A DNA stretch of 64,000 bases, taken from positions 1,947-65,946 of the IMG/VR virus record IMGVR_UViG_3300010391_000186; one strand, given 5' to 3'. The position numbers and the translations under genes were made by a program. Below the pieces are notes generated by a model, which was not told the origin of the DNA, did not search any database, and was given only the letters and a program-made list of their open reading frames with translations. The first letter of the stretch is position 1, and each line of letters starts with the position of its first letter. Source of the stretch: a virus (taxonomy: Duplodnaviria; Caudoviricetes). Below, piece after piece: positions 13,437 to 58,969 of the stretch.

Positions 13437-14873
13437 ATGACAATAACACTTCGACCAAGATATATGTATAGAGATTCCTGTAAAGAATGTAAAGGACACA
13501 GATCAAACTGTGGTGGAAAGAATGTTTGCGCTCCAGTAAAAAAGAAGCTGCGATCATACAACGGAATAAGACTTACAGCAGACGGTTTTGACTGTGCTTT
13601 ACCTGTCACGATAGACAGTCATAGTCAATGTTCATATGCTTGTATATACTGTTTCAGTCCTAATATCAGTGGACATAGAGAAGGTGAAGACCTTCTTACA
13701 GGACAAACATCACTTAACGATATCGAAAACATGTTCTCTGGAAAAGGTAAAAACATGGAAAATCTGTTCACAGCACTGAAGTTTAAAAACAGAATGAATG
13801 GTTATCCTTGTCCGGTGCAACTTGGAGGACTTACAGATCCACTTGATAACATCGAAAGAAATCAGGGATGGTTCTTAGAGTTTGTTCGTCTTGCTCAAAA
13901 ATACAAGCAACCAGTCCGTATAAGCACAAAAGGAAATATGTTTCTAGAACAAGAATACTTGGATGCTGTAGCAAAGACGCCAGAGCTATTCTGGGTAAAC
14001 TTTTCAATTATTAGTCCAGATGATAAACTGATGAAACTTGTTGATATCGGGGCACCACCACCTTCAGAAAGAATTCAGTGTATGAAAAACTTAACTGATA
14101 TCAAAGTTAAAACCGGACTTCGCTTCAGACCGATTATTCCTGGAATCAGCGATGCTACAAAAGATTATCCAAAAGCATTCTCGGACTTAATAAATATGGC
14201 TGCTGATGCTGGTGCAAGAAACATTTCATACGAAGTTGTATTTCTTCCACTACTTGATCCTAAAGCAGTTCCAAAATGGGAAGCAATAGAAAAATTAACA
14301 GGAATTCCGTATTGGGAGATATATCGAAAGTTTGGAAAGAAGCTACCATGTAATAGAGCATCATATATCTGGACAGAACAGATAATGTTCGCTATACATA
14401 GAGCAGCAAAGAAAAGAGAAATGTTCGTTGGTATTAGTGATCCTTTATGGAAGCAACTAAATGATGGTGGATGCTGCTGTGGAATTCCTCCAACAGATCC
14501 AGTATTCGGAAACTGGCAAAGAGAAAGCGCAACAAATCAGTTGATTGAAGCACGAGATACAGGAAAGCTTCTAACATCAAAAGACGTAATTCCAGCATGG
14601 GCATTAATGACAAAAGCAGATCAAATGTATCGACCACCGATAGGTCCCGCTGGTGCTACATTCCGTCAATACTTTATGTGGGGAGATAAAATGCAGGAAC
14701 AGTGGAATGATTTAACCTGTGAAAGAGGTCCCTTACAATACTTCCAGGGTGCGCTTAGACCAGTTGAACGTAAAGAAGACGGAGAAGTTGTTTTCAAGTA
14801 TGTTGGTCTTGAACGTAGAAATCCAAAAGAAACATCATACTGGAATATTAAGGAAGATGAAGATGAAAAGTGA
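13437..14873 (+). CDS. Radical SAM enzyme (spore photoproduct lyase-like clade) with extra Cys clusters
   Basis: CSYACIYC, DPLDNIER, RISTK, N-terminal CKEC..C..C and internal GCCCG. Confidence 0.85.
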   Translation: MTITLRPRYMYRDSCKECKGHRSNCGGKNVCAPVKKKLRSYNGIRLTADGFDCALPVTIDSHSQCSYACIYCFSPNISGHREGEDLLTGQTSLNDIENMFSGKGKNMENLFTALKFKNRMNGYPCPVQLGGLTDPLDNIERNQGWFLEFVRLAQKYKQPVRISTKGNMFLEQEYLDAVAKTPELFWVNFSIISPDDKLMKLVDIGAPPPSERIQCMKNLTDIKVKTGLRFRPIIPGISDATKDYPKAFSDLINMAADAGARNISYEVVFLPLLDPKAVPKWEAIEKLTGIPYWEIYRKFGKKLPCNRASYIWTEQIMFAIHRAAKKREMFVGISDPLWKQLNDGGCCCGIPPTDPVFGNWQRESATNQLIEARDTGKLLTSKDVIPAWALMTKADQMYRPPIGPAGATFRQYFMWGDKMQEQWNDLTCERGPLQYFQGALRPVERKEDGEVVFKYVGLERRNPKETSYWNIKEDEDEK

Positions 14874-15053: not shown

Positions 15054-15449
15054 ATGAATCCAAAATTCAAGGGATGGGATACAAAAAGAAATAAAATGTA
15101 TTCAGCATCGGAACTAGGTATTGACGAACTAACTATTAATCCAGATGGTCGAGGATTTGTAAATGTAAGCAGCACGGATCAAAAACTAAGTCAATACATG
15201 CAGCATATAATTCCTCTTCAGTTTACTGGACTGAAAGACAAAAACAACACAGAAATATATAAAGGAGATGTATTACAATCAAACGACATGAGTATTCATG
15301 TTGTGGAATATAACATATGCAGATGGTCAGCACGTTTAATAAGAAGAAGAATGGAAAGGTGGCCTGCTCAATTCCTAGACTGTGATTATATGGGATGGAT
15401 AGTAATCGGAAACATATATGAAAATCCAGAATTAATCAAAGGTGTTTGA
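15054..15449 (+). CDS. YopX-family phage protein
   Basis: KFKGWD...LQFTGLKDKNNTEIYKGD...VIGNIYENPEL. Confidence 0.9.
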   Translation: MNPKFKGWDTKRNKMYSASELGIDELTINPDGRGFVNVSSTDQKLSQYMQHIIPLQFTGLKDKNNTEIYKGDVLQSNDMSIHVVEYNICRWSARLIRRRMERWPAQFLDCDYMGWIVIGNIYENPELIKGV

Positions 15450-15451
15450 AT

Positions 15452-16639
15452 ATGGAAAGCATGTTTGATGAACCACTATATGAACAAGAATGTAAATGGG
15501 CACTTATTGAAGCTCCAATACCAAACGCACCTGAAGGAAAATATATCTCTCAGATACCAAGCCCAAACAATCTTCTTACAGTATCAAGCGCATTGAAAGC
15601 AAGTGGACATACAGATATAAAATTATATCAGTTCTTACAAGAAAGACATCCAAGAATAGTCGTTGCAGAGAACATCGTTTACAATCTAGGTGAAGCTACA
15701 TGCATGGATTATCTCTACAACTATGCTCTAGAATATCTTGAATTACTAAGAAGAACAAATCCACATTCAAAAATATACTTAACTGGATATCATGCATGGT
15801 TGCACCTTGAAAACTTCAACGACTTCATAGTAACTTCACCACAGTCTTTTGAAAATGATATTGTTGGAACTGTATCAACAACAGAATGGCATAATGACTG
15901 GTCAGTAAACGACTGGGAATTTATGAAATCCAAAGTGAGTTCAACAAGCAGTGGAATTAGATGCACTTTTAGATCAACAAGAAGATGTCCGCATCACTGC
16001 AGAATGTGTCCAGTAAATACCGTATATGGTCACACCAATATTCGATATTCTACCGAATGGGTCATGGAAGAAATAAAAACACTATACAACAAATACAATA
16101 TCCGTGAAATAGGATTTCTTGATGATAACCTGTTCTATAATCGTGTTTGGGGAAAAGAACTTCTCAACAAAATAATAGCAGCAAACTTAAAAGGTCTTAA
16201 ATTTACATTTGAAGAAGGACTGGATGTTCCAACAGCACTTGATGAAGAACTAATAATACTTCTAAAGAGAGCGCATTTTCATCATATAAAACTTGGTGTT
16301 GAGGCACTTGATTCAAAAACACTTGACTTTATACAAAAGCCTTATAGAGATCCAGAAGATGCTATCAAAGCGATAAAACTGCTTCAAAAACATGAACTTA
16401 ATCCAACCTGCTTTATCTGTATTGGATTCCCAACAAACACTGAAGAAAGCATTCAGCATGATATTGATATACTTGTAAATTTAAAAGTGAAACTAAGAGT
16501 TCAAATTTTATGGGCATATCCCGGTATTGATTTTGCAGGAAAATCTCTATCACATGAAAAACTAAAACACTTCCAAAAAGAAGCAATGGATAGAACTGGA
16601 AGTAGTTCGTGGAGCCACAAACATGATAAGTCTATTTGA
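15452..16639 (+). CDS. B12-binding-type (class B-like) radical SAM enzyme
   Basis: N-terminal B12-binding-like region, STRRCPHHCRMC, GFLDDNLF, LGVE and IGFP motifs. Confidence 0.8.
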   Translation: MESMFDEPLYEQECKWALIEAPIPNAPEGKYISQIPSPNNLLTVSSALKASGHTDIKLYQFLQERHPRIVVAENIVYNLGEATCMDYLYNYALEYLELLRRTNPHSKIYLTGYHAWLHLENFNDFIVTSPQSFENDIVGTVSTTEWHNDWSVNDWEFMKSKVSSTSSGIRCTFRSTRRCPHHCRMCPVNTVYGHTNIRYSTEWVMEEIKTLYNKYNIREIGFLDDNLFYNRVWGKELLNKIIAANLKGLKFTFEEGLDVPTALDEELIILLKRAHFHHIKLGVEALDSKTLDFIQKPYRDPEDAIKAIKLLQKHELNPTCFICIGFPTNTEESIQHDIDILVNLKVKLRVQILWAYPGIDFAGKSLSHEKLKHFQKEAMDRTGSSSWSHKHDKSI

Positions 16640-30063: not shown

Positions 30064-31032
30064 TTATAATAAAACTATTTTTCCTTTATTTAACACGCTT
30101 TCAAAGTGTGGAACAAATTTTTTATATTCTTCCTTCAGTTTTTCTGGAGTTGCTTTAAAATACGCTGCTCTTGTCGCAGGAATCTTATGTCCCATAAAAT
30201 ATTCTGCAAGTTCACCCATTCCCCATCCTCCAATATTTAGGATTGTGTTGAAAAACATTTTTCTTAAATTATGTGAATGAAACTTATTGTACTCTCTAAA
30301 ACCGGGTTCTCTCATACCAAGATTCATAGCAGTTACACGATACATTTCTAGAAACACATTTTCATTTATTTGTTCACCTTTTTCCAAGCATATCAAATAA
30401 TCACTGTCTTCTAAGTTCATCCTAGTTATCTGATTTATAGATAATTCTGTTGCTGTGGGTGAAAAAAAAGTATGGAACTTTACATTAGTCTTCTGACGTT
30501 GCATGTTTAAGCATGTTATATGATCTTCAGTAAGATTTTCTATAATCATACCCGCTTTAAGTTCACGAGCATCAGACATAGAAATACCAGATGTATATTG
30601 TATCGCAACGATCATTTGCATCAGTGGATCTGATATACGCATAGCATTTGATATATGTTCATCAGTAAGACTGAAATCATTTTCGATGCTTATTGTTGGA
30701 GCAGCTTCTCTCTTCAAAAGCTTCTTGGAAAGTGTTATATCATTTGATGCATAGAACGAACTTACTGCGGCGAGGTATGTTACTCTCGATGTTCGAGACA
30801 TATTCTCTCTTAAGTAATTCTTAAAGGTACCTATGTGGATAGGAAGAGATTGCTTGCTGTAAACAAGTCCGGATTCTTTTTCACACTGCTCAATCAAGTT
30901 TGAAGGAGTAAGACCTATAATACTGCAATACTTCCGCATGACAGTTGTATAGAGTTCTCTTGTATTATTTGTCTTAGACAAACACACTTGATTAAGCCAG
31001 TTAATCAACTTAGGATCATTATCTATTTGCAT
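30064..31032 (-). CDS. int: Tyrosine recombinase/integrase
   Basis: SAM-like N-terminal domain, RQKT, HNLRK, FMGH...TRAAY. The first catalytic Arg position reads SGISMSD. Confidence 0.9.
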   Translation of the reverse strand: MQIDNDPKLINWLNQVCLSKTNNTRELYTTVMRKYCSIIGLTPSNLIEQCEKESGLVYSKQSLPIHIGTFKNYLRENMSRTSRVTYLAAVSSFYASNDITLSKKLLKREAAPTISIENDFSLTDEHISNAMRISDPLMQMIVAIQYTSGISMSDARELKAGMIIENLTEDHITCLNMQRQKTNVKFHTFFSPTATELSINQITRMNLEDSDYLICLEKGEQINENVFLEMYRVTAMNLGMREPGFREYNKFHSHNLRKMFFNTILNIGGWGMGELAEYFMGHKIPATRAAYFKATPEKLKEEYKKFVPHFESVLNKGKIVLL

Positions 31033-31649: not shown

Positions 31650-32129
31650 ATGGCTGAAAGTAAGGATAACATAATAACTCAAACACTTGAAATGCCTAAG
31701 AAAGAAGGTAAGATGGGTATCTTTGACTCTTACTTACAACTCCGATTAACTATTGCTCAAGTGATGAAAGATTCTAACTACTCCCCAACAGACACTAGGA
31801 TAAACGACATAGTCAATCTAATGATTTCTGGTATCCCTAATCTAAAAAAACAAGTAGCACTTAGAAAACATCGTGATGAACGCATCGAAAAAGAAACAAA
31901 AGATCTCACTACAAACGAAGAGAAAGGTAGGAAAACTCAGCAGATTCATATTGAACTAGCCGGAGAACTTGCTCCATATATGGACATGTACACTGGAGGA
32001 GAACGTTCAAATCGTATCTCATTTATCATCCCTATAAAAGAAATGCGTACCATTATGGAAGCAGCAAATCCAGAACATTTCAGAGAACATCTTGATCAAG
32101 AAATCCCTATTGACATGGATGAAGATTAA
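31650..32129 (+). CDS. Hypothetical protein (first gene of the morphogenesis module)
   Basis: TATA tttatat at about 31618, apparently leaderless, adjacent to the ATPase. Confidence 0.6.
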   Translation: MAESKDNIITQTLEMPKKEGKMGIFDSYLQLRLTIAQVMKDSNYSPTDTRINDIVNLMISGIPNLKKQVALRKHRDERIEKETKDLTTNEEKGRKTQQIHIELAGELAPYMDMYTGGERSNRISFIIPIKEMRTIMEAANPEHFREHLDQEIPIDMDED

Positions 32130-33017
32130 ATGCCACATATTGATTTCTGTTTAGAGATTGCAGAAGCAATCACATCAAAACATAATCAGCACGCAACATT
32201 AATGATCTGGGCACCTACAGGAAAAGGAAAATCATGGGCAGGTGGATCTATAGGAGAACGTGTTGCTCAACTTGTAGCTGAAATTAAGGGTGGCGATCAA
32301 GAAGATTATTTCACACCAGAAAACATTGCAGTCATAACTCAAAATGAAGTTCTTCGTGTCATGTCCACAAGAATGGATAAGAAGTTTGTAATAATTGGAT
32401 TCGACGATATAGGACTTGCATGGAACTCTCGTGACTTCATGTCTGAATTCAACAAGTGTATGAACGACATAGCGCAAACAATACGCACTCGCAATCTATT
32501 CGCATACTTCACACTTCCTGATCCAATGCTCATTGATAAAGTTCCTCGTGATCTAATCAAATACGTTATGAAGATTGAAAGTTCTAATTTTGACTTGGGA
32601 TATGTAGTTGCAAAAATCCAAGAACCAATGAAGAAAGTTCAGTGGGGAAAAAAGATTTATCCATATTTGCTTGATGAAGATGGACAAAGAATTGTTCGTC
32701 ATGTTATTTTCCGTCCTTCTCAAAAATGGGTGGAAAACTACGAACCTCGAAGACAAGAAATAGAACGTGTCAATACAAATGTTACAGTTGAAACAATGCA
32801 GCATATCGTAGACGATGAACAAACACCACAAGAACCACACGCTTCAAAACGTTCTGTCTTATCTAGAGCAGTAAAAATAGACTACAACAGCGGTGAAGGA
32901 CTTTCAATGGATAAGCTTGCAGAAAAATATGGAGTAGCAAAATCCACTATACATCAAGCACTTCTATTCCAAGATCCAAAATCAGTTCCAAACACAACAG
33001 AACCAAAGAAGATATAA
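32130..33017 (+). CDS. P-loop ATPase (putative packaging/extrusion ATPase) with C-terminal HTH
   Basis: APTGKGKS, IGFDD, IRTRN and IDKVPR motifs. HTH LSMDKLAEKYGVAKSTIHQAL. Confidence 0.75.
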   Translation: MPHIDFCLEIAEAITSKHNQHATLMIWAPTGKGKSWAGGSIGERVAQLVAEIKGGDQEDYFTPENIAVITQNEVLRVMSTRMDKKFVIIGFDDIGLAWNSRDFMSEFNKCMNDIAQTIRTRNLFAYFTLPDPMLIDKVPRDLIKYVMKIESSNFDLGYVVAKIQEPMKKVQWGKKIYPYLLDEDGQRIVRHVIFRPSQKWVENYEPRRQEIERVNTNVTVETMQHIVDDEQTPQEPHASKRSVLSRAVKIDYNSGEGLSMDKLAEKYGVAKSTIHQALLFQDPKSVPNTTEPKKI

Positions 33018-34856: not shown

Positions 34857-37799
34857 ATGAATTCAAAAATAGTTCTTTTAATTCTTGCAGTAGTTGCAGC
34901 CATTTCATTAACATATCCAGTAGATGCTTTTGAAGAAACATTCCAGTGGTATCCGGATGGTGTTTTTACAAGTAATTGGGTTGGTGGTGGATCTATAATA
35001 GATGCTGGAACATACAATCGTCAGCATTCACAATCTGCTAGTATTGGTGGTGCGCCGTATTCTAGTTCTAATTATGTACAAAGTAAATACGTTTTTGATT
35101 CAAATTATATTGCTTTCAAAATGGTTACTTGTTCTGGCAGTGCATCGACAGGAAACGATGCTGCTTATGGACAGGTTATATTATATGATACCGATGGTGT
35201 TGCAATACTAACTTATACCATTTGCAGTCGCAGCACTGCAACAGCAAATTCAAATTTTGAATTTCTAAGAGATATTGGCACAAGTCAAGTCCAGCTAAAA
35301 ATAAATAGTGTTTCTCAGGGAAACGTAGGCACTTCTTCAAAAAACATTGGTTATATAAAATTTTATACTTATGCTTATATGTACTGGGTAACTTCAAGTG
35401 CTTCTGTTACACTAACAGTAGATGATATTACCACAACAGGATATATCTCAGGAATAGGTGTAGAAACACCATATCATTCACAAAATGAACTGAATCTAAA
35501 ACCAATGTCTTCTTCATTTTTAATGAAAACAATACCACAAGCAGATTTTGATAGTTCATATTTTGATATAATATGGCAAAAAGCAGCATCAAATGGAACA
35601 CTTCAAACATTATATTCAACAAGAGTGAAAAATGTAAGTGAATCTGTATATTCTGGAGTCAAATATTTAAATAGATACAACAATTTAACTGCCAACGATA
35701 CTAATTACGGATTATATTTTGAACGATTAACAAAAAATGATGTGATTCAATCTTCTGACTATTTCTTCTTAGTTCCAGCAGGAACAACGAATACAATAAC
35801 ATCAGATGCAACTGCAACCATCGGACAACAAGAAATTATTTCCTATTCAATAGGAGCACCTGATTTTGCTGGAAGTTCTTATACAATAAACGTATATTCA
35901 TATAATGCATTGGTTGTATCATTACCTATAGCAACAGGAGCAGCAACCGGAACAGTCACTTGGGATACAGCAGGTAATTCAGCAGGATTATATTTCATAA
36001 CACTATCTAAAACAACTTCTGGAATTCAAACAGATCTTGCTTATACTATAACCACACTTGTTTCAACATTATTGATAAGAGGAACTGTGTATGATGCTGT
36101 AAATGCAACACCTTTATCTGGAGTAAACATAAACTTTTCACAAGGTACAACATGGTATAATACCACTTCAAATGGAAACGGAAGCTACAATCTTTCTGGA
36201 TTAACAGTAGCACTTCTTACACGAATAAACGCTTCAAAATCTACGTGGATGCATAACAATTATTCTTTTACTCCTCTAGCTCCACAAATGTACACAATAA
36301 ATCTATATTTAATTTCTACAGGTTTCAACTGTTCTATAGCAGCAGGTGGTGGAAATTCAACAAACACTTGTATAAACGGGATGGTAGAAAACAATCCTTA
36401 TCATCAAGCAGTTGGCGGAGCAGCGGTTTTTCTTGGAAATGGTTCTTATTTCGCAAACACTACTTCAAACACCACAACCGGATATTATCAATTCTTGAAT
36501 CTTTCTGATGATAACCTGACTTATGTTGTTAATGCAACCAAGTCTGGATTTATGAATTCTCAAGATTACAATGTAACTACAATAAATCAAACAGACGTTC
36601 AGCAAATCATATTAATGAGTGAAATTTACACATTAACGATTCAAGCTCAGGATGCTTCAAATACAAACACCCTTCTAGATTTTCTGTTATTATTCAATCT
36701 AGCAAACTATAATACTACTGTTGGACAGATAACGATTTCAAATTTAGTTTATGGTCAATATCCAGCTATTGTATCTGCCACAGATTATATTTCATCTTCA
36801 CAAACAATTCTTATGGATTCAACAAAAACAGTAACTTTTCTTCTAACACCAATATCAGCAGCGCAAGCAAGCACAATATTCAAAACACTACCACACGATG
36901 TTGCTTTTATAGTTCAAGATCTTGCATTTAATAAAAAATCAGGGGTGTCTGTAACTGCTCAAGGATATAATACAACAGTTGGTTCTTGGACTTGGTTAGC
37001 AGATCTGATCGGAATAGACTTTGATTTAATTCCAATAAATAACATGAGTATGATTGGAATAACAGGAACAGACGGTTCTATTGACTTCAAGATGGATGGA
37101 AGCATTTACTACATTCTAACATTTTCTGGAGGAAATATATCTAATACAACCTGGAGAGGATATCCAACAAAATATGAATACTATATTATAGTGCCAACCA
37201 CCCTTTATGGAACATTCACGAACAACGTAGATCAATTTTCCACAATGATCACAACTGTTTCATCAAAGACAATAAATTCAACACACGCTTACATTAATGC
37301 AAGCCATAATGACAGTATGAATCAAACTTCTAGCATAATTATCTATCTTAACAAATCTATTGTCGGTGATCCAAACAATCAGACAAATCTACAAATTAAA
37401 AACGGCGGAACAAACGCAACATATAACGCATCATTCATAGTTAGTCCTTATGCAGGCAATGATTATATCATAAATTTCAACATGATACATTCTTCAGGAA
37501 CAGTTATTCGTTCTTATGGAGTATCATTTCCACAAACAGCAATATTATCCTATTTCAATCCAATTTCAATCTTAATGCTTTTAATTGGATTAATAATATT
37601 CTTTTCGGGAATATTTGGGCAAACAAGTACCGAACAAGGAGCAGGAATCATAGTAGGTCTCGTCTGGTTATTATCTGGAATGGGTCTATATGTAAATTTA
37701 AATCTAGGTGTATCATTCTATCTTGGATTGACACTTGCAACAGTTATCGCAATACTAATGAATATGAATGCTAGAGCAAGAAAAGAGGGAATGTCATGA
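34857..37799 (+). CDS. Large secreted, membrane-anchored glycoprotein (putative receptor-binding adhesin)
   Basis: Signal peptide, Thr/Ser/Asn-rich beta-sandwich repeats (carboxypeptidase-regulatory-like: IRGTVYDA...PLSGV...GSYNL), many NxS/T sequons and 3 C-terminal TM helices. Confidence 0.8.
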   Translation: MNSKIVLLILAVVAAISLTYPVDAFEETFQWYPDGVFTSNWVGGGSIIDAGTYNRQHSQSASIGGAPYSSSNYVQSKYVFDSNYIAFKMVTCSGSASTGNDAAYGQVILYDTDGVAILTYTICSRSTATANSNFEFLRDIGTSQVQLKINSVSQGNVGTSSKNIGYIKFYTYAYMYWVTSSASVTLTVDDITTTGYISGIGVETPYHSQNELNLKPMSSSFLMKTIPQADFDSSYFDIIWQKAASNGTLQTLYSTRVKNVSESVYSGVKYLNRYNNLTANDTNYGLYFERLTKNDVIQSSDYFFLVPAGTTNTITSDATATIGQQEIISYSIGAPDFAGSSYTINVYSYNALVVSLPIATGAATGTVTWDTAGNSAGLYFITLSKTTSGIQTDLAYTITTLVSTLLIRGTVYDAVNATPLSGVNINFSQGTTWYNTTSNGNGSYNLSGLTVALLTRINASKSTWMHNNYSFTPLAPQMYTINLYLISTGFNCSIAAGGGNSTNTCINGMVENNPYHQAVGGAAVFLGNGSYFANTTSNTTTGYYQFLNLSDDNLTYVVNATKSGFMNSQDYNVTTINQTDVQQIILMSEIYTLTIQAQDASNTNTLLDFLLLFNLANYNTTVGQITISNLVYGQYPAIVSATDYISSSQTILMDSTKTVTFLLTPISAAQASTIFKTLPHDVAFIVQDLAFNKKSGVSVTAQGYNTTVGSWTWLADLIGIDFDLIPINNMSMIGITGTDGSIDFKMDGSIYYILTFSGGNISNTTWRGYPTKYEYYIIVPTTLYGTFTNNVDQFSTMITTVSSKTINSTHAYINASHNDSMNQTSSIIIYLNKSIVGDPNNQTNLQIKNGGTNATYNASFIVSPYAGNDYIINFNMIHSSGTVIRSYGVSFPQTAILSYFNPISILMLLIGLIIFFSGIFGQTSTEQGAGIIVGLVWLLSGMGLYVNLNLGVSFYLGLTLATVIAILMNMNARARKEGMS

Positions 37800-39149: not shown

Positions 39150-42100
39150 TTGGGATTATTTGATTGGTTCTTTTCGGGTGGACAGCAAACTTTTCAAAAT
39201 ATAATAACTCCTGTCGCACCACAAACAGGAACCATAGGAGCAGCAGTAGCGACGGCACAGCAAGCAACAAGACCACAAACAGCTACTCAACAATCTGTTG
39301 CACCTGCACCAACCCTATCAGTTCCTCTCCCAGAACAAATCCGTTTGATGACAACACAAGAAGCAGTATCTCCATTTTCTGGAATATCATCTTTCTTAAA
39401 AGATTCTGCTGAAAATGTATCCTCTCAATTATCTGGAATTCTTAGACCCATAATTGAAACTCCTCAAGTTCAAGCAGCAATAAAAGCAGTAACATCAACA
39501 GCAGCACCAGTGCAAACTCCTCAAACAGTAAGTGATATGTCACAATTTTCTAGAGATATTTATGGGGGAGCTTCAAGAATTGCAGCAGTTATCGGAACAG
39601 GAATGGGAATAGCTGACATTGGAGCAAGACGTATTGAAAGACAGCTTCCAGGAGGGCTATCAGAATTATATGGAGCAACATATGAACTAGGAAAAGGAAT
39701 ATTCTTGAGCGCACCAAGATTAACTGTTGATATGGCTGGAATGATTCCGGGCGGTGTTGAAACAATAGCAAAGAATATACCAATGTTACCAGCATTTGCA
39801 GCAGCAGGAGTCATATCTCAAGTATCAGGATTACAAGAAGGATTTTCTCAAAGACCCATACAAACAATAGGAGAACTTATTGGAATGGGAGCAATGGGTG
39901 AAGCTGGAAAAGTTGTTCGTTTTGGACAAGTCAAAATACCAACCGCTGCGGGAGAAGTTCCAGTATGGAAAGGAGCATATTTAGATATTGGAGCAACACC
40001 ACGTCCTATCGTAGGTTACGTTCCTGAATTTATTGCAAAACCTATCACAGAACCAATAGCAATAGGATTCCGTCCAGAAACATCTATTACTAAAGCAGTT
40101 GAAACAGCAAGAACAGCAAAAACAGTTTTCGGAACCCCTTCATCATTAGAAATCCCGCAAATAACAGATATAACAGCAGGATATTTCCCACGATCTGCAC
40201 TTGAAACAGCTATTGTCGCAAGACCCGAAATACTCACAAAACTTGGAATGGAACCAACAGCAGCAACAAAGATTTCTGTCGGAAGAGAACTTATTGGATT
40301 AACATCTGGACAAAAAACAGCGTTCCAACTTACAAGACCATATTCTTTCGAAATATTTGGAAAAGAAATAGTAACACCATTTAAAGTTCCAACACTCATA
40401 GCAGAAACAGAATCATTATCATCAGCGGGTGTATCAACAACACTACAATATTTAAAAACAGAGAAATTCAAACTAACTGATGTTCCAAAAGTTGGAGAAT
40501 TAACAGCACTAGAAAGACTTACTGAAATAAATAAAGAAATACTAAAAGCGAAAACACCTCTTGAAGGAGATTATTCTTTTAAATCCACAATGGAACTTGA
40601 AACATCTCCAGGAAAGAAAGTATCATATTATGATATTTTAGAGTCAGGAAAAACAATAGGAACAACTCTTATAGAAGCTTCTGGAAAAGATGTTAAAATT
40701 GGAACGTTTGAATTATCACCAGAATTTCGTGGCAAAGGCATAGGAACTGGTCTAGCAGAAAAAATCTTAAAAGAATTTGAACTGTCTGGTATGGAAAAAG
40801 TCAGTCTTATACCAAAAGATGTAAGAGCAGCAAACTTCTGGCAAAAAATAGGATTTGAATATTCTAGAGAAGTTACTGGAACAATGGAACTTAAATTACA
40901 AGGAAGAACAAAACTTCCAGAGTATTCAATTGAAGATCTATTAACTATTTCTAGACCGGTTTTTGAAAGAATGGGTATCGATTTATCTAGAGGAAAACTA
41001 ATAGAAGAAATAAGATACGCTGCTCCAGGAGAAATCCCAAAAGGTATATCAGATCAAACTAGAATTTCAGAAGTATCCATACAAAGAGCAGCATTCTCCA
41101 AAACTGAAACACCACTTACATACGAAATATTACTGCAAAAAGGAGAACCTCTAAAACAAACAATAGAAACACTAGCTCACGAAATAAGTCACGCTGTACT
41201 AGAAAAAGGATTTGAAGAAAGTTCATTTGTAGCTGAACCAACAGCAATAAAAGGTTCTGGAATATTTTTAAGTGAATTCTCAAAATACTATGCAGCCGCA
41301 AAGATTAAACCACAAGCCGGTTTTGGATTAATAAACTTAATTCAAAAAGAATATGCTCCATATGTTGTTGGAAAATATACATCAGAAATTCCTTATCGTC
41401 CAGCCATAAAATCAGAATACAGAACGCAGTATCCAACAGAAGTCAAACCATTAATCGAAAAAGTTATGGGTAGCTTTTCTGCTCAAGCACAAATGATGCC
41501 AGAATTTAGAAGAGTTGCTGGTGATATTGATATCCATACTCGTGGTACAACAGAACAAGCTGTTCAACTCGCAACAGGACTACAAGCAAAGCTAGCAGAA
41601 ATCGGAATAGAATCTCGTGTATCTGGATCAACTGTAGAAACAAGAGGTATATCTAAAGAATGGGTTCACGCAGTACAATTCCTTCCAAAAGAAGAACTTT
41701 CTTATATTGGAACTGAAGGAGCAGGACTTAGATACGGTATCAAAGTAGAGCAACCGCCCATGACTGTAGAAGGTATGCCAGTAATGAAATTGGGAGAACA
41801 AGCTACAAGAAAAATCACAGGAAGCTTAGAATTTAGAGAAGGAAAACTACAACCAGCAGAACATAGATTATTAAAAGATGTTCGTGATGCATATACAACA
41901 GCATTTACTCTTATTGAATCAAAATCAGCAAAAATTGGAATCCCTATACTAAAAGATATTGAAGTTGCTAGAGGAAGACAATTATTACAGCAGTGGAAAG
42001 AACTATATCCTGAAATTGATTGGATAAAAGTTGGTCAAGAACCAATAAAAATGGAAATTCAAATCGAAGGAATAAGTAAAGGAACAAAAAAAGCATCTCT

Positions 42101-42770
42101 AACAAGTGAAATAAATAAATATGCAGAAAGAATTTCAGAACAAAAACCATATACTTTTAGTGCTATATCTGAAGCAGCAAACGTTCCATATGTTCCTTCA
42201 ACATATGAAAAAACAGCGTCTGTCTATACAAGAGAGTTCACTCCATTTACAGAAGAAATATATCCGATTCAAGCAAAACCTGAAAAATATTCACCAGCTT
42301 TAATATACGGAGTAGATTATCCAATAATAAAAGAACCATCATATAGATTTCCTTTTACAGAAGTTCCAACATATAAAACAACAGAATATCCTCCAGATAA
42401 AGTTCCGTCTTACATCCCAACAGTTTATCCTCCAACAGATATTCCTAAATATCCAACCCCATACACTCCAGAAAAGGTTCCTCCATACGTTCCAACAGTG
42501 TACACACCAGAATTATATCCACCCGAAGTATATCCACCAGAAACATATCCGCCTTATGGTGGTATTGGAACTCCGTTTGATCCTATTAAAATAATCAAAC
42601 CATTGAAAGATGAGGTGTTTATAGGAAAAAGAAAAAAGACAATAAAAAGAAAATCAGTAGCATATACAATCAAAAATCCACTTGCAGACTTAGAAGATGT
42701 ACTTGGAATTATGGATGCAGATATTAGAAAAGAAATAAATCCGACAAAAAAGAAAAGGAAGTCAAAATGA
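39150..42770 (+). CDS. 1206-aa polyvalent protein: GNAT acetyltransferase, HExxH zincin and nucleotidyltransferase, with Pro/Tyr-rich tail
   Basis: FRGKGIG...AANFWQKIGF, LAHEISHA, MGSF...GDIDIH and YPPE/YVPT repeats. TTG start after GAAGGTGA. Confidence 0.75.
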   Translation: MGLFDWFFSGGQQTFQNIITPVAPQTGTIGAAVATAQQATRPQTATQQSVAPAPTLSVPLPEQIRLMTTQEAVSPFSGISSFLKDSAENVSSQLSGILRPIIETPQVQAAIKAVTSTAAPVQTPQTVSDMSQFSRDIYGGASRIAAVIGTGMGIADIGARRIERQLPGGLSELYGATYELGKGIFLSAPRLTVDMAGMIPGGVETIAKNIPMLPAFAAAGVISQVSGLQEGFSQRPIQTIGELIGMGAMGEAGKVVRFGQVKIPTAAGEVPVWKGAYLDIGATPRPIVGYVPEFIAKPITEPIAIGFRPETSITKAVETARTAKTVFGTPSSLEIPQITDITAGYFPRSALETAIVARPEILTKLGMEPTAATKISVGRELIGLTSGQKTAFQLTRPYSFEIFGKEIVTPFKVPTLIAETESLSSAGVSTTLQYLKTEKFKLTDVPKVGELTALERLTEINKEILKAKTPLEGDYSFKSTMELETSPGKKVSYYDILESGKTIGTTLIEASGKDVKIGTFELSPEFRGKGIGTGLAEKILKEFELSGMEKVSLIPKDVRAANFWQKIGFEYSREVTGTMELKLQGRTKLPEYSIEDLLTISRPVFERMGIDLSRGKLIEEIRYAAPGEIPKGISDQTRISEVSIQRAAFSKTETPLTYEILLQKGEPLKQTIETLAHEISHAVLEKGFEESSFVAEPTAIKGSGIFLSEFSKYYAAAKIKPQAGFGLINLIQKEYAPYVVGKYTSEIPYRPAIKSEYRTQYPTEVKPLIEKVMGSFSAQAQMMPEFRRVAGDIDIHTRGTTEQAVQLATGLQAKLAEIGIESRVSGSTVETRGISKEWVHAVQFLPKEELSYIGTEGAGLRYGIKVEQPPMTVEGMPVMKLGEQATRKITGSLEFREGKLQPAEHRLLKDVRDAYTTAFTLIESKSAKIGIPILKDIEVARGRQLLQQWKELYPEIDWIKVGQEPIKMEIQIEGISKGTKKASLTSEINKYAERISEQKPYTFSAISEAANVPYVPSTYEKTASVYTREFTPFTEEIYPIQAKPEKYSPALIYGVDYPIIKEPSYRFPFTEVPTYKTTEYPPDKVPSYIPTVYPPTDIPKYPTPYTPEKVPPYVPTVYTPELYPPEVYPPETYPPYGGIGTPFDPIKIIKPLKDEVFIGKRKKTIKRKSVAYTIKNPLADLEDVLGIMDADIRKEINPTKKKRKSK

Positions 42771-43156
42771 GATTCTATCACATAGCTCTTGGAGTATGGG
42801 TATTTATGCTTTGTTTAAGCATGGTTAATTCTCTTGGGATATTTGCATATAAGATGCCAACTGCTAATTTTGATACTTCAGCATCTGATGCACAAATAAC
42901 ACAATTAACAAACACAATGTCTCAATCACAGGACTCTGGTGGATTTTCAAGCATTGTTGCAGGAGCAGGACTTATAGCAAATTCTTTTTCCTATATGTTA
43001 AATGTGTTCTGGAAATCAATAAACATAATCGGACTTGGAAATGCATACGGTGTAGATATAAGAATTTCTGCACCGTTTCAAGCACTTTATGTCTTTACAT
43101 TAGTCTTCGGACTCTATCAATTCTTAACAGGAAGAGCCGCAAAAATAATGGAGTAA
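42767..43156 (+). CDS. Membrane protein, putative virion component
   Basis: N- and C-terminal TM segments; ends YQFLTGR. Confidence 0.6.
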   Translation: MRFYHIALGVWVFMLCLSMVNSLGIFAYKMPTANFDTSASDAQITQLTNTMSQSQDSGGFSSIVAGAGLIANSFSYMLNVFWKSINIIGLGNAYGVDIRISAPFQALYVFTLVFGLYQFLTGRAAKIME

Positions 43157-45062: not shown

Positions 45063-45347
45063 ATGTCAAAAGGAATAGGAATAATATTAACTGTTTCATT
45101 ACTAGCTGCTGCTCTAGTAATAGTCAATACATACATGACCACATCTCTATCTTCAACTTCTCAAGGAGTAAACTTATCAAGTTCTCCACAGGAAATTCAG
45201 GATGCATATAACGCAAGTCAAAACACAGCAATCGCATCAGTCGCAGTTTCACACTGGACAGTATATTTGATAGGAATATTTGCTGTAATAATAGTCCTTG
45301 TCGTCCTTATACTAATGGTTCAATTGAATAGAAGAAAAGCTAGATGA
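45063..45347 (+). CDS. Two-helix hydrophobic protein, putative minor capsid protein
   Basis: TM-loop(NLS, NAS sequons)-TM-basic tail, directly upstream of the MCP candidates. Confidence 0.6.
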   Translation: MSKGIGIILTVSLLAAALVIVNTYMTTSLSSTSQGVNLSSSPQEIQDAYNASQNTAIASVAVSHWTVYLIGIFAVIIVLVVLILMVQLNRRKAR

Positions 45348-45552
45348 TAATTCTTTTTTATTTAAAATCATCAACAGTAGCTCGTCTTTTAAACGATTTC
45401 AGCAAGGTTTCATTTTAGTTTTAGTATTAAGTATCGCTGCATTTTAGCTCAAAACTAAGTATATATACTGTTCTTCTTTATATACTCTAAAATCAATTAC
45501 TGGATAGTTGATTTATAAACTTGAACTCATAGTTCAGGAAGGTGATTTACAA

Positions 45553-45972
45553 ATGACAAAATCAATAACCAAGAAAGCAATCGCTTTTGGAAAGAAATTC
45601 TTGAAGAATGAAGATGCTCAGATGGGAGGTGTCGGTACTCTTTACGCAGTGTTCTTCGCTGCAATCGTAGTCCTAGCAATAATCATCATATTCACCTTCA
45701 TCCCAGGAATTGGCTCAACAGTTGAGCAGTCCACACCAGCAGCACCAGCATACGGAAAGCCCGGTGGAGCATGGAACGCATCTGACGCAGCTAATCCAAA
45801 TGCAGCAGCACTTCAGACATCAAGTGGCGCAGCAATCTGGACAAGCACTTCAGGAATGCTGAAAGTTGCGATGATCATAGGTATCGTCGTAATCATACTT
45901 GGCAGCTTGTTCGCAATCTTTGCAGCACGCAGAGCTGAAGCAGGCGGAGGGGGCGGCGGAGGTCCCATGTAA
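45553..45972 (+). CDS. Putative major capsid protein 1 (spindle-virus-type two-helix hairpin) with prepilin-like leader
   Basis: Own TATA promoter (about 45460-45485), GGAAGGTGA RBS, KNEDA|QMGG leader, two long hydrophobic helices, C-ending codon bias. Confidence 0.7.
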   Translation: MTKSITKKAIAFGKKFLKNEDAQMGGVGTLYAVFFAAIVVLAIIIIFTFIPGIGSTVEQSTPAAPAYGKPGGAWNASDAANPNAAALQTSSGAAIWTSTSGMLKVAMIIGIVVIILGSLFAIFAARRAEAGGGGGGGPM

Positions 45973-45995
45973 GTGTCTAAAGACACAGTTAGATC

Positions 45996-46022
45996 TGGGG
46001 GAGAAATCCCCCACAACTTTTT
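45996..46022 (+). terminator. GC-rich hairpin plus T-run between the capsid paralogues
   Basis: TGGGGGA-GAAA-TCCCCCA followed by caacttttt. A second hairpin GTGTCT-aa-AGACAC lies at 45973-45986. Confidence 0.6.
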
Positions 46023-46054
46023 CCAAAACAGTCATATTGGAGGTGAAAAATAAA

Positions 46055-46501
46055 ATGACAAAGTCAATAACCAAAAAGATTCAGAAATATACATCCAAAT
46101 TCATAAAGAATGATAAAGCCCAAATGGGCGGTGTAGGAACTCTCTATGCTGTGTTCTTCGCAGCTATTGTGGTACTTGCAATAATCATAATCTTTACATT
46201 CATACCCGGAATTGGAAGCACTGTTGAACAATCAACACCAGCATCTCCAGCTTATTGCACAAATACAACAAATGCGACAACGTGTGCGGCAAGCTTAGTC
46301 CGTGGTGGAGTGTGGAACGCAACAGACACAAACAACCCGAATCAGGCAGCACTTGCAACATCTAGCGGCGCAGCTATATGGACTTCAACAAGTGGAATGC
46401 TCAAAGTAGCTATGATAATTGGCATAGTAGTCATTATCCTCGGCAGCTTGTTCGCAATCTTCAGGACAAGACGTCAGGAAGGTGGCGGCGGAGGCATGTA
46501 A
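46055..46501 (+). CDS. Putative major capsid protein 2 (paralogue of MCP1)
   Basis: GGAGGTGA RBS, KNDKA|QMGG leader, helices identical to MCP1 with a different loop. Confidence 0.7.
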   Translation: MTKSITKKIQKYTSKFIKNDKAQMGGVGTLYAVFFAAIVVLAIIIIFTFIPGIGSTVEQSTPASPAYCTNTTNATTCAASLVRGGVWNATDTNNPNQAALATSSGAAIWTSTSGMLKVAMIIGIVVIILGSLFAIFRTRRQEGGGGGM

Positions 46502-48046: not shown

Positions 48047-48879
48047 TATTATGAATAAAATATTAGAAACCATTAAGAAAACTGTAAACAAAATCATAAA
48101 ACATGTTGCATATGAACAAAGAAGCGTTTCATACATAAGATTTATTGTTCTAGGCCTGTATCTTGCGGTATCTTTTCTAATAACTATACTATTTGCTTTT
48201 GGGAGTATGCTTAGAGAAGGGGTCTTAATAGTAAATCCATTTAGAACGCATCTTTCTAGCAAAGCAGTTTCTGATATTTATGGATTCTTAATAATAGATA
48301 AGATATTATTTATGCTTCTTATAGCATCATTCTTCCTTGTATTATCTAAAGAATATCAGGAATATCATGCACGAAAAATAATCAAGAAATATAAACTGGA
48401 TGTAATAGAATGAAAGCAGCAAAAGTTTCTTCAATTGACAATCCATCGATAAAAGATCTTCTAAATATGGAACACTGGGCACTTATGAATAATCTTCATG
48501 TTCATCCAGCTTTTATGAAAGCGTGTAAGAAGAAAAACAGCGTATTAATCATATCTTATTCTGTTGTAATGCTTGTGATCATAATTATAGCATTAGTGGT
48601 GAAATAAAATATGGAAATAATAAAACTATCAAAAATTATGGCGTTAAGACTATCTTCTATAAACGCAGGAATAGCAATTCTAACATTTTTTGCACTTGAA
48701 CTTTTTAATCATATACAGATACCAGTTTTTCAGTGGAATCTAGTATTTGGTTTTGATATGTCTGAAGGAGAAATACTTATCAATACAATTAGAATATTCG
48801 GTATCACTTCTGGACTATCTATGATTTTCATAGGATTGAGTTCAAGGTGTTGGATAACAGTAATGAAGGAGGATTAAAA

Positions 48880-49872
48880 ATGGCAGAAGTAGGACTTTTA
48901 GATATAGGATTGTCAATAACAATAATGGACTTAATAATTATAGTTATTCTTGCAATGTTAGTATCGCAGCTTCCACATCTTTATTTTTGGTTAGAAAGAA
49001 GAAGAATGAATCCAGAGGGACCAATCTTTATTTCTGCAAGAAAAAATGGATATCCAATTATTGAAAGAGTTGCAATGAGTGGATTCACGCGCTTTGAAAT
49101 AGGAGAAAAAGAAGTTAGAGGTGATCCAGTATTCAAAATGGATAGAAACACACGTCAAGGAGTCCATCTTGATCCTAGATTATCTTCCGGTGGAGTACCT
49201 AGAGAATTCCTTGCTGGTGGAGCTGAAATAATGCACTATTCAACATCTTCGCCAACTTCAATGTCTTCAAAAACTGCTCTAGCAATGAGTACAATAATCA
49301 AACACGTTCGAAAGAATTATCCATATCTAGATTTCCTTCCAGAACAACTTATTATTGAACTTATATATAGAAATCGTAAGGACTTGATACACGACTGTAA
49401 AAACATTATTGAGATGTATGACTTTGAAGGAAAGATAAACGTACCATTAACGATTCTTGCAGCATTCAAAGAAGACATTATAGAACAACTAAGAACAAGA
49501 TATATGGAAGAAGGAAAAACAGACGAACCTTCAAAAGATGATATTGATGCAGCGTATGAACAAAACGTAAAGTCGTATCAGAGAATGTATCAAGCGAAAA
49601 CACTTGCTGAAACACTACAAAAAATCCAAGATGAATCAGTTCAACTTCCAGTGGAAACAAATAGATTCTTCTCGTTCGTAGAAGCGTTCCAGAATTCACC
49701 AATAGCAACATTTGCAGCAGATCTTCAAAACTATCTTACAACCATAGAACTTATCGCAGAAAAGAAGAAATCACTTACAGAAAAGGATAAAATGATGATG
49801 TATGCAATGGCAGCACTTATAATCATAATAGGTGGAGCTGTTGCTATGAACATGCTACCAGCAAGGAAATAA
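48880..49872 (+). CDS. Membrane protein with N- and C-terminal TM and a large soluble domain
   Basis: GGAGG RBS; flanked by several small TM ORFs (48051-48877, 50558-51164). Confidence 0.65.
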   Translation: MAEVGLLDIGLSITIMDLIIIVILAMLVSQLPHLYFWLERRRMNPEGPIFISARKNGYPIIERVAMSGFTRFEIGEKEVRGDPVFKMDRNTRQGVHLDPRLSSGGVPREFLAGGAEIMHYSTSSPTSMSSKTALAMSTIIKHVRKNYPYLDFLPEQLIIELIYRNRKDLIHDCKNIIEMYDFEGKINVPLTILAAFKEDIIEQLRTRYMEEGKTDEPSKDDIDAAYEQNVKSYQRMYQAKTLAETLQKIQDESVQLPVETNRFFSFVEAFQNSPIATFAADLQNYLTTIELIAEKKKSLTEKDKMMMYAMAALIIIIGGAVAMNMLPARK

Positions 49873-56653: not shown

Positions 56654-57097
56654 ATGTCAAAATACAAAGAGTCAGAAAACTATAGGAATTATATGCAGTG
56701 GATAGCGGAAACAGAGAGTAGACCAGCAGTATCACAGCCAGAAGACGCTGCAAGGACAGCCATTCCTATGATAGAAGACATAACAAAAGAGTATTTCATA
56801 CTTCTCTGTTTAGACACTAAAAACAAAGTTATAAACAAGCAAGTTATCAGCATAGGATCTCTAAATGCAAATACTGTTCATCCTAGAGAAGTATTCAAAG
56901 CAGCATTATTAAGCAGTGCAGCGCATATAATAGTCTTGCATAATCATCCTAGTGGTGATCCAATTCCTAGTAGAGAGGACATTGAGATAACTAAGAAGCT
57001 GCATGAAGCTGGTAAGATGATGGGAATAGATCTTTGTGATCATGTAATCATTGGAGCAGGAAAGAATTTCAGTATGAAAGAGGCTGGACACATATGA
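56654..57097 (+). CDS. radC: RadC-like JAB domain protein
   Basis: VHPREVFKAA...HNHPSGDPIPSREDI...DHVII. Confidence 0.92.
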   Translation: MSKYKESENYRNYMQWIAETESRPAVSQPEDAARTAIPMIEDITKEYFILLCLDTKNKVINKQVISIGSLNANTVHPREVFKAALLSSAAHIIVLHNHPSGDPIPSREDIEITKKLHEAGKMMGIDLCDHVIIGAGKNFSMKEAGHI

Positions 57098-57889: not shown

Positions 57890-58969
57890 ATGAGATATAA
57901 AGATATGCAGCAGTGCATCACAATACTGAAGAATAGAGAAGAGAAACAGTCCGACCTAGTTGTGAAACCAGTGGACATTTTTATGAATGAAGATGCAAGC
58001 GTTGAAATTCCAACGCTAAGTCCAGCATCCATACCAATGACAGCATGGGCTCATAATCAAATGTCGAAAAAGCTAGACATTCCAACTGGATATTATAACA
58101 GGATGCTTGAAAGCGATAAACCGCTATTAAGCAACAATGTTAATCGCTGGCTACAGGATGCAAACAGTCTCATGATAAGGACAGAATCAGGAACAGCAAG
58201 AGCAGTTCTGAGCAGTAAATACAAAGTAGTTCAGAATCGTCTTGTTCTTCTTACTGTCCTTAACACGCTTACAGACATGCATAGACCGTTCATAACACGT
58301 TCATTATCTGAAAGTGATACCACGTTCTATGCAAAGTTTGTCGGACAAGAGACCTATGATATGGGCAAAGGAGATCTACACCGGGGCGGAATAGTCATAC
58401 GCAACTCGGAAGTAGGTGCAAGCAGACTCCAAGTGGATTTCTTCACATGTCGCTTATCATGCGGAAACGATGCAATATTCGGCGGAGAAGGAATCAGCAA
58501 AGTCCATATAGGGCGCAAGCTTGACGCAGGACTTATTGACTATGCATCCGATACAGTTGAAGCGGATAATGTTGCAATGATGAAAGCGATTCGTGACATA
58601 GTTCACACAGCGTTTGATCCTGCTGGAATACAAGTAATATATGACAGAGTGAAACTTTCAAAAGAAAATGTCATAAGCGAAACAGCACAAGTCATCCGGC
58701 AAATACAAGCACAGCACAAACTATCGGATCAGCTTACAGATAGACTTCTTGTATCACTACAAGGAAACACGCAATTCGATGTCGCTCAAACACTTACATT
58801 AAACGCACAATATATCACGAATGAAGACAAGCGTATTGAGATGGAAGAACTTGGTGGAGAACTGCTAATAATGCCCAAGACAACTTTCAACACAGCATTC
58901 AAAGTCAATGGAAAGGAACTTAGAATAGCTGCACCCGATGAAAACATAGATATGTCGGAATTTGCTTAA
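57890..58969 (+). CDS. DUF932/DUF945-family protein
   Basis: RAVLSSKY...IRNSEVG...RLSCGN...H.G. Confidence 0.75.
   Translation: MRYKDMQQCITILKNREEKQSDLVVKPVDIFMNEDASVEIPTLSPASIPMTAWAHNQMSKKLDIPTGYYNRMLESDKPLLSNNVNRWLQDANSLMIRTESGTARAVLSSKYKVVQNRLVLLTVLNTLTDMHRPFITRSLSESDTTFYAKFVGQETYDMGKGDLHRGGIVIRNSEVGASRLQVDFFTCRLSCGNDAIFGGEGISKVHIGRKLDAGLIDYASDTVEADNVAMMKAIRDIVHTAFDPAGIQVIYDRVKLSKENVISETAQVIRQIQAQHKLSDQLTDRLLVSLQGNTQFDVAQTLTLNAQYITNEDKRIEMEELGGELLIMPKTTFNTAFKVNGKELRIAAPDENIDMSEFA

Follow-up and report, generated by a model that had tools for sequence, protein, structure and literature searches.

Does the long open reading frame (ORF) that lies among membrane-protein genes in virus record IMGVR_UViG_3300010391_000186 encode enzymes that are carried into the host cell together with the viral DNA? 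The window, the whole stretch of 64,000 nucleotides analysed here, covers bases 1947-65946 of this 65,946-bp IMG/VR record, which is rated complete, with direct terminal repeats (DTR). Its genes lie nearly all on the plus strand, and the GC content is about 34%. A first-pass annotation had read the 1206-aa ORF as a polyvalent effector embedded among virion genes. In polyvalent proteins of phages and plasmids, GNAT, zincin peptidase and Pol-beta nucleotidyltransferase (NTase) domains are recurrent, and delivery with the DNA is predicted (Iyer et al. 2017, PMC5512222, cited throughout from its available portions). The ORF is real, and the coordinates given for its GNAT, HEISH and GS...DxD elements are all accurate. 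The observation as a whole is partly confirmed: ORF, GNAT and NTase hold, the zincin fold and the label of virion genes remain putative. What is new is a widespread, unannotated family of 63-86 relatives with a confidently predicted NTase core in a putative particle-gene block, of which one clade carries two extra enzyme-like domains. Its product in the window, P0001, is a candidate effector, one that would be carried into the cell by the virus and would modify molecules of the host.

39150..42770 (+): whole ORF, protein P0001, 1206 aa, TTG start

The signature of Pol-beta-type NTases is the pattern hG[GS] ... Dh[DE]h. P0001 contains GS at aa 774-775 and, after a 16-residue spacer, D792-I-D794, together nt 41469-41531; in the available text of PMC7450476, hG[GS] and Dh[DE]h are NTase motifs I and II. 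Across 57 aligned relatives, the active-site columns hold G in 56, S in 52 (plus three T), D in 57 and D/E in 57. D792, G863 and D910 are invariant; G774, S775, Q781, R788, D794, E883, R887, K888, P902, R906, K909 and D913 are kept in at least 90%, and H905 is likewise a conserved position of the module. At the third-carboxylate column, which lies in HAVDIH in relatives, D is found 46 times, E six times and Q five times.

An AlphaFold2 (AF2) model of the NTase module, built from the family alignment, reaches a predicted local distance difference test (pLDDT) of 81.4 and a predicted template modelling score (pTM) of 0.75. Its strand-helix order lets GS open a helix and places DID on the following strand. 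In a Foldseek search against the PDB, the first 40 listed rows are all of NTase fold as judged by their descriptions, with probabilities up to 0.99. MenT1, JHP933, MenT3/TglT, a fungal NTase-like antigen and LinB are among the neighbours listed, as are Mimivirus and Megavirus poly(A) polymerases, CCA-adding enzymes, OAS1, CdnD and NF90/NF45. Against the viral models of BFVD, three matches reach E<=1e-3: the unnamed A0A5P9U643 (1041-aa model, E 1.5e-5, probability 1.0), A0A514K2U2 of the Nitrosopumilus spindle-shaped virus (NSV; 1125 aa, E 7.9e-5, probability 1.0, 14% identity) and an unnamed 298-aa protein. Asfarvirus and giant-virus poly(A) polymerase subunits follow. The family-alignment profile (A2) run against PDB sequences gave low-complexity matches only and no NTase. 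The near-invariant motif, the confident model and the NTase-fold neighbours together support a Pol-beta-type NTase fold for aa 766-975, as the GS...DxD motif had been read.

For the GNAT domain, the assignment comes directly from sequence families. Pfam PF00583 (Acetyltransf_1) matches aa 489-569, nt 40614-40856, with E 1.4e-8 and 35.4 bits at a cut-off of 20.7, and two more GNAT models, PF13508 and PF13673, also exceed their cut-offs. Acetyltransferase families are the only PHROGs that match P0001, and GNAT chains occur among its PDB sequence matches (8iym and YpeA, aligned by phmmer). The acetyl-CoA-binding motif A of GNAT enzymes is R/Q-x-x-G-x-G/A, and the corresponding loop RGKGIG is intact at aa 527-532 of P0001 and likewise in P0003 and P0004. 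We consider a GNAT domain in P0001 confirmed at the level of sequence profiles, at about the 40.6-40.9 kb where it had been annotated. No GNAT subfamily can be named, because the weak NCBIfam matches to ArsN2 and RimI in this region lie far below their cut-offs.

The third element is HEISH at aa 677-681 (nt 41178-41192), the sole HExxH in P0001. From the composition of the protein, with its five His, 0.0018 occurrences are expected by chance, which makes the motif non-random; it is kept in 3/3 orthologues (HEISH, HEVSH, HEIGH). Two profile matches of aa 577-767 are centred on it, both below cut-off: Peptidase_M78 PF06114 (E 0.034, 14.4 bits, cut-off 22) and SprT-like PF10263 (E 0.17, 12.2 bits, cut-off 25.6). 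An ESM Atlas look-up with aa 586-765 gave a best score of 0.80, which is chance level. The region is probably a minimal zincin, a prediction in which the fold is unproven: the motif of the annotated zincin stands, while these profiles and the AF2 model considered below do not bear out its fold.

How are these domains combined? An exhaustive HMMER search returned 86 proteins at E<=1e-3, most of them matching aa ~770-926, and a profile search gave 63 family proteins, all annotated 'hypothetical'. No model in Pfam, NCBIfam or PHROG exists for the family, and the NTase family itself is new in that it is undescribed in the libraries searched. The close orthologues are P0003 (86%), P0004 (82%) and those of loci L002 and L008. 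Precomputed Pfam domains among the 63 members comprise the GNAT of this clade and spurious matches in P0110 only; the GNAT is confined to P0002/P0003/P0004 (3/63). A Pfam scan of seven long relatives (1252-1508 aa) revealed no credible extra domain, the two P0110 matches lacking a stretch that passes by itself. The homologue search for longer proteins (1702-4860 aa) found none, and in 50,697 phage and archaeal-virus records, NSV1 MK570053 not among them, neither P0001 nor P0009 had a tblastn match.

In most relatives the region equivalent to aa ~300-420 runs straight into the NTase. In P0009, query residues 328-420 align with target residues 436-521 and query residue 765 falls at target residue 524, so that positions 420 and 765 of P0001 come to lie two residues apart; the gap is 17 residues in P0012 and 26 in P0020. 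Measured with our own hidden Markov models, the distance from N-module to NTase is 62-142 aa in 12 other two-module proteins and 489-492 aa in P0001, P0003 and P0004. From these gap differences it follows that GNAT plus HExxH (aa ~421-700, ~300 aa) is a clade-specific insertion. By these alignments it is confined to the P0001 clade and lies directly upstream of the NTase. The variable domain content that a comparison of orthologues had been expected to uncover is therefore limited to this insertion and to loss of the NTase. P0001 divides into the following parts:

39150..39494 (+): variable N-terminus, rich in Gln/Thr/Ala/Pro (aa 1-115); first ~50 aa conserved with P0003, P0004 and P0005
39495..40019 (+): N-module, conserved, Gly/Ala-rich, moderately hydrophobic (aa 116-290); also in proteins without the NTase
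40020..40469 (+): middle region (aa 291-440), common to many family members, where it directly precedes the NTase
40470..40904 (+): GNAT domain (aa 441-585), first half of the clade-specific insertion
40905..41249 (+): HExxH region (aa 586-700), second half of the insertion, probable minimal zincin by prediction
41250..41444 (+): NTase lead-in (aa 701-765); P0042, P0067, P0045, P0019 and P0015 align from query position ~690-720
41445..42074 (+): Pol-beta-fold nucleotidyltransferase module, predicted family core (aa 766-975)
42180..42569 (+): Pro/Tyr-rich repeats YPP and PxY (aa 1011-1140), with Pro/Ser-rich tracts at the same place in relatives
42570..42767 (+): basic stretch and conserved C-terminal motif (aa 1141-1206), ending KKKRKSK

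The Ala/Gly-rich N-terminal part and the basic Pro/Tyr-repeat tail that had been noted are matched by residue counts: aa 101-300 contain 27 Gly and 25 Ala, aa 1001-1200 contain 35 Pro and 22 Tyr, and KKKRKSK is the end of the protein, which has no Cys. The N-terminal part is hydrophobic and Gly-rich by composition, yet it is not a predicted transmembrane (TM) helix, as Kyte-Doolittle windows of 19 residues across P0001 peak at 1.46 and none reaches 1.6. A profile of the N-module alignment (A5) gave 0 matches to PDB sequences, and an ESM Atlas look-up of aa 1-440 stayed at chance level (best score 0.87). At aa ~1171-1186 lies the C-terminal motif AYTIKNPLADLEDVLG, which is also present in the NTase-less relatives P0005 and P0008. 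Many members end in a basic stretch followed by [YW]x[VI]xNP[LIV]xxLxxxLG or by an alternative type, Y.PSL...TG.GIRP.

Sorted by module, 128 related proteins comprise 15 with N-module and NTase together, 91 with the NTase alone and 13 with the N-module alone; P0005 (791 aa) and P0008 (645 aa) combine N-module and C-terminal motif without the NTase. As far as sequence can tell, the family scaffold thus consists of a Gly-rich hydrophobic N-module, the NTase, a Pro-rich spacer and a basic tail with a short conserved motif. Constant ends around a variable centre are what would be expected of a protein that docks somewhere. Free concatenation of cassettes, the architecture that the first-pass annotation had in mind, is not borne out, since the NTase sits in a conserved scaffold common to dozens of relatives.

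The ratio of nonsynonymous to synonymous substitution rates (dN/dS) was obtained from a single pairwise comparison of P0001 with the 86%-identical L008 orthologue (overall dS 0.32). It is 0.059 for the NTase, 0.084 for the NTase lead-in and 0.115 for the C-terminal tail, followed by 0.24 for the N-module, 0.31 for the HExxH region, 0.37 for the GNAT and 0.39 for the Pro/Tyr spacer. The N-terminal aa 1-115 are 72% identical to L008 with a dN/dS of 0.30. All parts of P0001 are under purifying selection, and the NTase is the most constrained despite Gln843, a substitution discussed below. At the position homologous to the TTG start of P0001, the L008 orthologue has ATG.

The gene is tightly packed. 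Its ORF starts 3 nt past the stop of the upstream ORF and has a 4-nt overlap with the start of the downstream one (42767-43156). The neighbours are as follows:

34857..37799 (+): 980-aa protein upstream with a signal-like hydrophobic N-terminal start, CarboxypepD_reg repeats, many NxS/T and three C-terminal TM helices
38555-38848 (+): small membrane protein upstream, 97 aa, two hydrophobic helices
38806-39147 (+): small membrane protein directly upstream of the P0001 gene, 113 aa
42767-43156 (+): membrane protein directly downstream, 129 aa
43161-43940 (+): membrane protein downstream, 259 aa

The family gene was found in 40 fetched loci besides the window, and proteins built like the 980-aa one adjoin it in other loci. 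On these virus-like contigs, genes shared downstream encode a 4-TM protein of ~175 aa (8 loci), a ~180-aa protein (5 loci), a 2-TM protein of ~260 aa (4 loci) and giant secreted proteins of 742-1426 aa (4 loci). In some loci, paralogous two-helix proteins of 97-146 aa lie upstream of the family gene. The membrane-protein gene block around P0001 most likely builds the virion. The flanking membrane structural genes of the first-pass annotation are membrane genes by TM prediction; the structural part is putative, and no flanking gene matches a known virion protein. With Pfam, no capsid, portal or terminase family was detected in 30 window ORFs, and among 10 neighbours the sole PHROGs match is a DnaA-like ATPase at 32130-33017.

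What kind of virus is this, and what does it infect? A replication module occupies the left half of the genome, with RFC-like AAA+ proteins, an ERCC4-like nuclease, a PD-(D/E)XK nuclease, a DNA methylase, a family-B DNA polymerase (PolB), Ogg, an ATP-dependent ligase, a ribonucleotide reductase, two radical-SAM proteins and a tyrosine integrase. This gene set fits an archaeal virus, and the closest viral PolBs, at 25% identity, are those of haloarchaeal tailed viruses. Scanning genome contigs yielded nothing with the full-length alignment and two loci with the NTase alignment. In two loci from metagenome-assembled genomes (MAGs), labelled Woesearchaeota and Campylobacterales, an integrase adjoins the family gene in both and PolB in one; L004 and L005 are the loci with integrase/PolB near the family gene. 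In L004 (1-16628), from the MAG labelled Campylobacterales, an integrase gene, the family gene (product of 1026 aa), membrane-protein genes and the gene of a DUF2341 protein of 1066 aa follow the gene order of archaeal-virus-like loci; this contig is probably viral and mis-binned. The phylum to which the Woesearchaeota-labelled MAG belongs is not established as the host, because the family occurs in 1/401 of its sampled genomes, that one being the MAG itself. Nitrososphaeria and DPANN are candidate host groups.

The virus had also been called spindle-type. The architecture of the two-helix proteins and one BFVD match, to the NSV protein, speak for this; the candidate capsid proteins lack significant similarity to His1 VP21, and the resemblance of the two-helix proteins to spindle-virus capsid proteins is in architecture only. 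That BFVD match, a comparison of predicted structures, is the one result that points to a link with NSV. The putative spindle viruses of ammonia oxidisers described in PMC10866085 have genomes of 27-38 kb, and its available text mentions no such protein.

We tentatively prefer, with somewhat less than an even chance of being right, the reading that P0001 is a clade-specific elaboration of a large-protein family, encoded in the virion block and acting on the host at entry. Its constant N- and C-terminal parts would take it into the particle and to the membrane, and P0001 would enter along with the DNA or work at the entry site. On the model of MenT and poly(A) polymerases, the NTase would add nucleotides to the 3' end of a host RNA or to a host protein, while the GNAT would acetylate a protein of either host or virus. 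The HExxH domain may cleave the polypeptide into working parts, as proposed for bacterial polyvalent proteins in the available text of PMC5512222. An internal virion effector, as first annotated, is consistent with at least two unrelated enzyme folds, the DTR virus record and the tight packing among membrane-protein genes; among the flanking genes, no match to a known virion protein was found. The reading as a polyvalent virion effector is plausible and partly supported.

Other results weigh against the preferred reading. Gln843 occupies the third-carboxylate position in P0001, P0003 and P0004, where 52/57 relatives have Asp/Glu; E830, which is kept in P0001 and is E in 45/57 relatives, might substitute for it. 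In GNAT domains the Tyr of motif B is the usual general acid, though not universally so. W564 of P0001 aligns in phmmer with this Tyr of 8iym and YpeA and is Trp in all three orthologues. Because Gln843 and Trp564 stand at usually catalytic places, activity of the two enzymes is not to be assumed, and judged by these residues either of them, NTase or GNAT, could be weak or inactive in the P0001 clade. The statistics of the PDB Foldseek search are weak (best E 1.7e-3, none <=1e-3, TM-scores 0.3-0.4), and curated NTase families gave no match in Pfam (0/57 members), NCBIfam or PADLOC. An hhalign comparison of the NTase module with 31 archaeal AbiEii homologues was not significant (Prob 0.84%, E 0.066, 109 columns). 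With a pLDDT of 31.9, the AF2 model made for aa 577-767 from three sequences cannot be used, so that domain-wise structure prediction succeeds for the NTase (81.4) and fails for the HExxH region. No further Pfam enzyme domain was found in seven long members and 56 others. On the side of packaging, PHROGs returned 0 structural matches for nine flanking proteins, and domain-library scans detected no MuF, portal, type IV secretion system or other known packaging domain. The capsid candidate formed by two tandem paralogues, described below, had no tblastn match in phage records, and the two-helix capsid candidates of related loci gave an hhalign probability of 0.2% against His1 VP21.

The alternative that survives best takes P0001 as a structural or morphogenetic component of tail, terminal-complex or tape-measure-like type, which would stay with the particle or envelope. 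Its enzyme-like domains would serve assembly, for instance by acetylating or processing virion proteins, or be inactive scaffolds, and no host target would be modified. The conserved gene position amid membrane-protein genes and giant secreted proteins fits such a component, and so do the Gly-rich hydrophobic N-module, the long Pro-rich spacer and the docking-like C-terminal motif. The 13 relatives with an N-module and no NTase and the non-canonical Q843 and W564 would also be accommodated. However, the near-invariance of GS, DxD, K888 and D910 in 57 relatives, with D/E at position 843 in 52/57, argues for catalysis in the family. The NTase, moreover, is the most constrained segment (dN/dS 0.059), and the acetyl-CoA-binding RGKGIG is intact. 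We regard a purely structural role as unlikely.

Alternatively, P0001 could be made after infection and never packaged, working inside the cell in take-over, anti-defence or genome-end processing, for instance by nucleotidylating tRNAs or defence proteins of the host or by tailing the ends of nucleic acids, with the gene position a mere matter of operon layout. The nearest solved folds, tRNA-modifying NTases of MenT/AbiEii type and viral poly(A) polymerases, act inside cells. NTases of the AbiEii family are frequent in one candidate host phylum, the genome carries solo RadC and DUF932 genes, and P0001 itself has no packaging domain in the library scans. Such a soluble cytoplasmic enzyme is hard to reconcile with N- and C-terminal frames that are kept even without the NTase and with the tight coupling to membrane-protein genes, and a length of 700-1400 aa with long low-complexity spacers would be unusual for it. 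This makes an intracellular role rather improbable in our estimate, a little more so than a structural one. In the phylum of G001, 87/301 sampled genomes, with the unpublished genome G246 counted in, have AbiEii/DUF1814 genes above cut-off, and multiple copies are frequent.

That a long low-complexity ORF without real enzyme domains matches these motifs by chance is very improbable: the HExxH region does lack a significant family match or usable model and the NTase a sequence-family match, but this explanation is already contradicted for GNAT and NTase by a Pfam score above cut-off, a confident NTase model with consistent NTase-fold neighbours and catalytic motifs conserved in 57 relatives, and it further meets an HExxH expected 0.0018 times and a dN/dS <0.4 in all segments.

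Comparison with known systems places the preferred reading, an effector delivered at entry, in context. With a GNAT domain and an NTase fold, plus a probable zincin, in a DTR virus record, P0001 combines at least two domains of disparate kinds, as the polyvalent class does. Similar to the proteins surveyed in the available part of PMC5512222, it is one mobile-element polypeptide with several unrelated enzyme domains of the GNAT (RimI-like), zincin and Pol-beta NTase classes, and its gene lies amid putative particle genes. The same text reports a paucity of polyvalent proteins in archaea, with those of >1000 aa almost all bacterial, and assigns the phages that deploy them to the terminase-portal class. 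In contrast, P0001 lacks hallmark domains such as MuF, portal and ArdC, its virus is not of the terminase-portal class as far as the Pfam scan of 30 window ORFs shows, its host is archaeal, and its NTase is a fixed family core rather than a shuffled cassette. By its domain composition P0001 matches the polyvalent architecture but falls outside the surveyed range, as a family-specific scaffold without a known packaging domain.

The best solved-structure neighbours of the NTase model are the DUF1814/AbiEii-MenT toxins (PF08843; PDB 8an4, 6y5u). Both have GS...DxD, a later acidic residue and conserved Lys and Asp downstream. The spacing of 22 residues between K888 and D910 of P0001 equals that between the toxin-specific K189 and D211 of MenT3 (PMC7450476, available text). 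In the hhalign comparison with AbiEii, the DxD, third-acid and E...K motifs are in register. PF08843, in turn, matches neither P0001 nor other members at E<=0.1-1. Unlike the toxins of ~250-300 aa, the NTase of the P0001 family is embedded in 700-1400 aa, and the P0001 clade has Gln in place of the third acid. No antitoxin gene was seen next to the P0001 gene, whose neighbours encode small membrane proteins, though no antitoxin profile was searched. Judged from the alignments, the AbiEii/MenT likeness is one of resemblance, not of membership.

A0A514K2U2, labelled 'IgA FC receptor', and A0A5P9U643 are both similar in size to P0001, which they resemble by predicted structure only. NSV, the source of A0A514K2U2, is a spindle-shaped archaeal virus in culture whose host has a low GC content. 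NSV has a linear genome of 27-29 kb and a protein-primed PolB (PMC8491892), in contrast to the 65.9-kb DTR record of P0001. Phage proteins that are packaged and co-injected with the DNA include T4 Alt, the N4 virion RNA polymerase and P1 DarA/DarB (PMC5512222, portions available). They share the proposed logic of a particle-carried enzyme with host targets at entry and have no homology to P0001. Among the papers listed in a literature search, none has both 'polyvalent protein' and 'archaeal virus' in title or abstract, though the supplementary lists of PMC5512222 may hold a relative. In the accessible portions of the literature on spindle-shaped archaeal viruses, nucleotidyltransferase and metagenomes, including PMC9796341, no such protein is described.

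If P0001 is packaged, the polyvalent delivered-effector strategy extends to a virus class and host domain in which the survey found it rare, and the cultured relative NSV gains a concrete enzyme to test. To our knowledge, very little is understood of how archaeal viruses without icosahedral heads enter the cell and take it over early on, and we know of almost no large proteins there with an assigned activity. A bolder version, which we hold to be doubtful, is that a family of non-tailed (spindle-type) archaeal viruses, relatives of NSV included, would use a particle-borne 'pilot' protein with a membrane-engaging N-module and a MenT-like NTase that hits host tRNA or defence proteins at entry, to which this clade would add the GNAT and a self-processing zincin. 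If true, a polyvalent injected effector would for the first time be known beyond terminase-portal phages and conjugative elements.

Several further genes of the window deserve description. Two tandem paralogues (45508-45972 and 45899-46501) have a hydrophobic helix at each end, a central Ala/Ser-rich part and C-termini with Gly runs (GGGGGGGPM); both may be membrane or capsid proteins of high abundance. At 45063-45347 lies a 94-aa two-helix protein with NxS/T sites in its loop. It shows a weak similarity (hhalign P 9e-4, probability 23%) to the two-helix paralogues by the family gene in L004, L017, L019 and L020 and is the best candidate, unproven, for a capsid protein.

Apart from the family gene itself, three window genes alone have homologues in distant family loci (L010, L022, L025): the P-loop ATPase gene at 32130-33017 (PHROG DnaA-like, E 2.2e-6), the gene preceding it (31650-32129) and the gene of a 341-aa 2-TM protein (48847-49872). 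Their distribution suggests a small conserved core of the virus group. The ATPase was also tried as a relative of His1 ORF16 and rejected, the BLASTP result being not significant.

ARAGORN found no tRNA gene or fragment in the window that would hint at an attachment site. The tyrosine integrase (30064-31032, minus strand) is the sole sizeable minus-strand gene and lies at the border between replication and membrane halves, at a dip in GC skew. For an archaeal virus of 66 kb, two radical-SAM genes (13437-14873 and 15446-16639) and a class-II-like ribonucleotide reductase (8267-10603) make up an unusual metabolic load. Further to the right, a solo RadC-like JAB gene (56654-57097, Pfam E 1.3e-44) is accompanied by a DUF932 gene (57890-58969). 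Both families are typical of the leading regions of plasmids and integrative and conjugative elements and of conflict regions. RadC is also one domain of bacterial polyvalent proteins (PMC5512222, in the portion available). With the RadC/DUF932 stretch, the virus may have a second region related to conflict.

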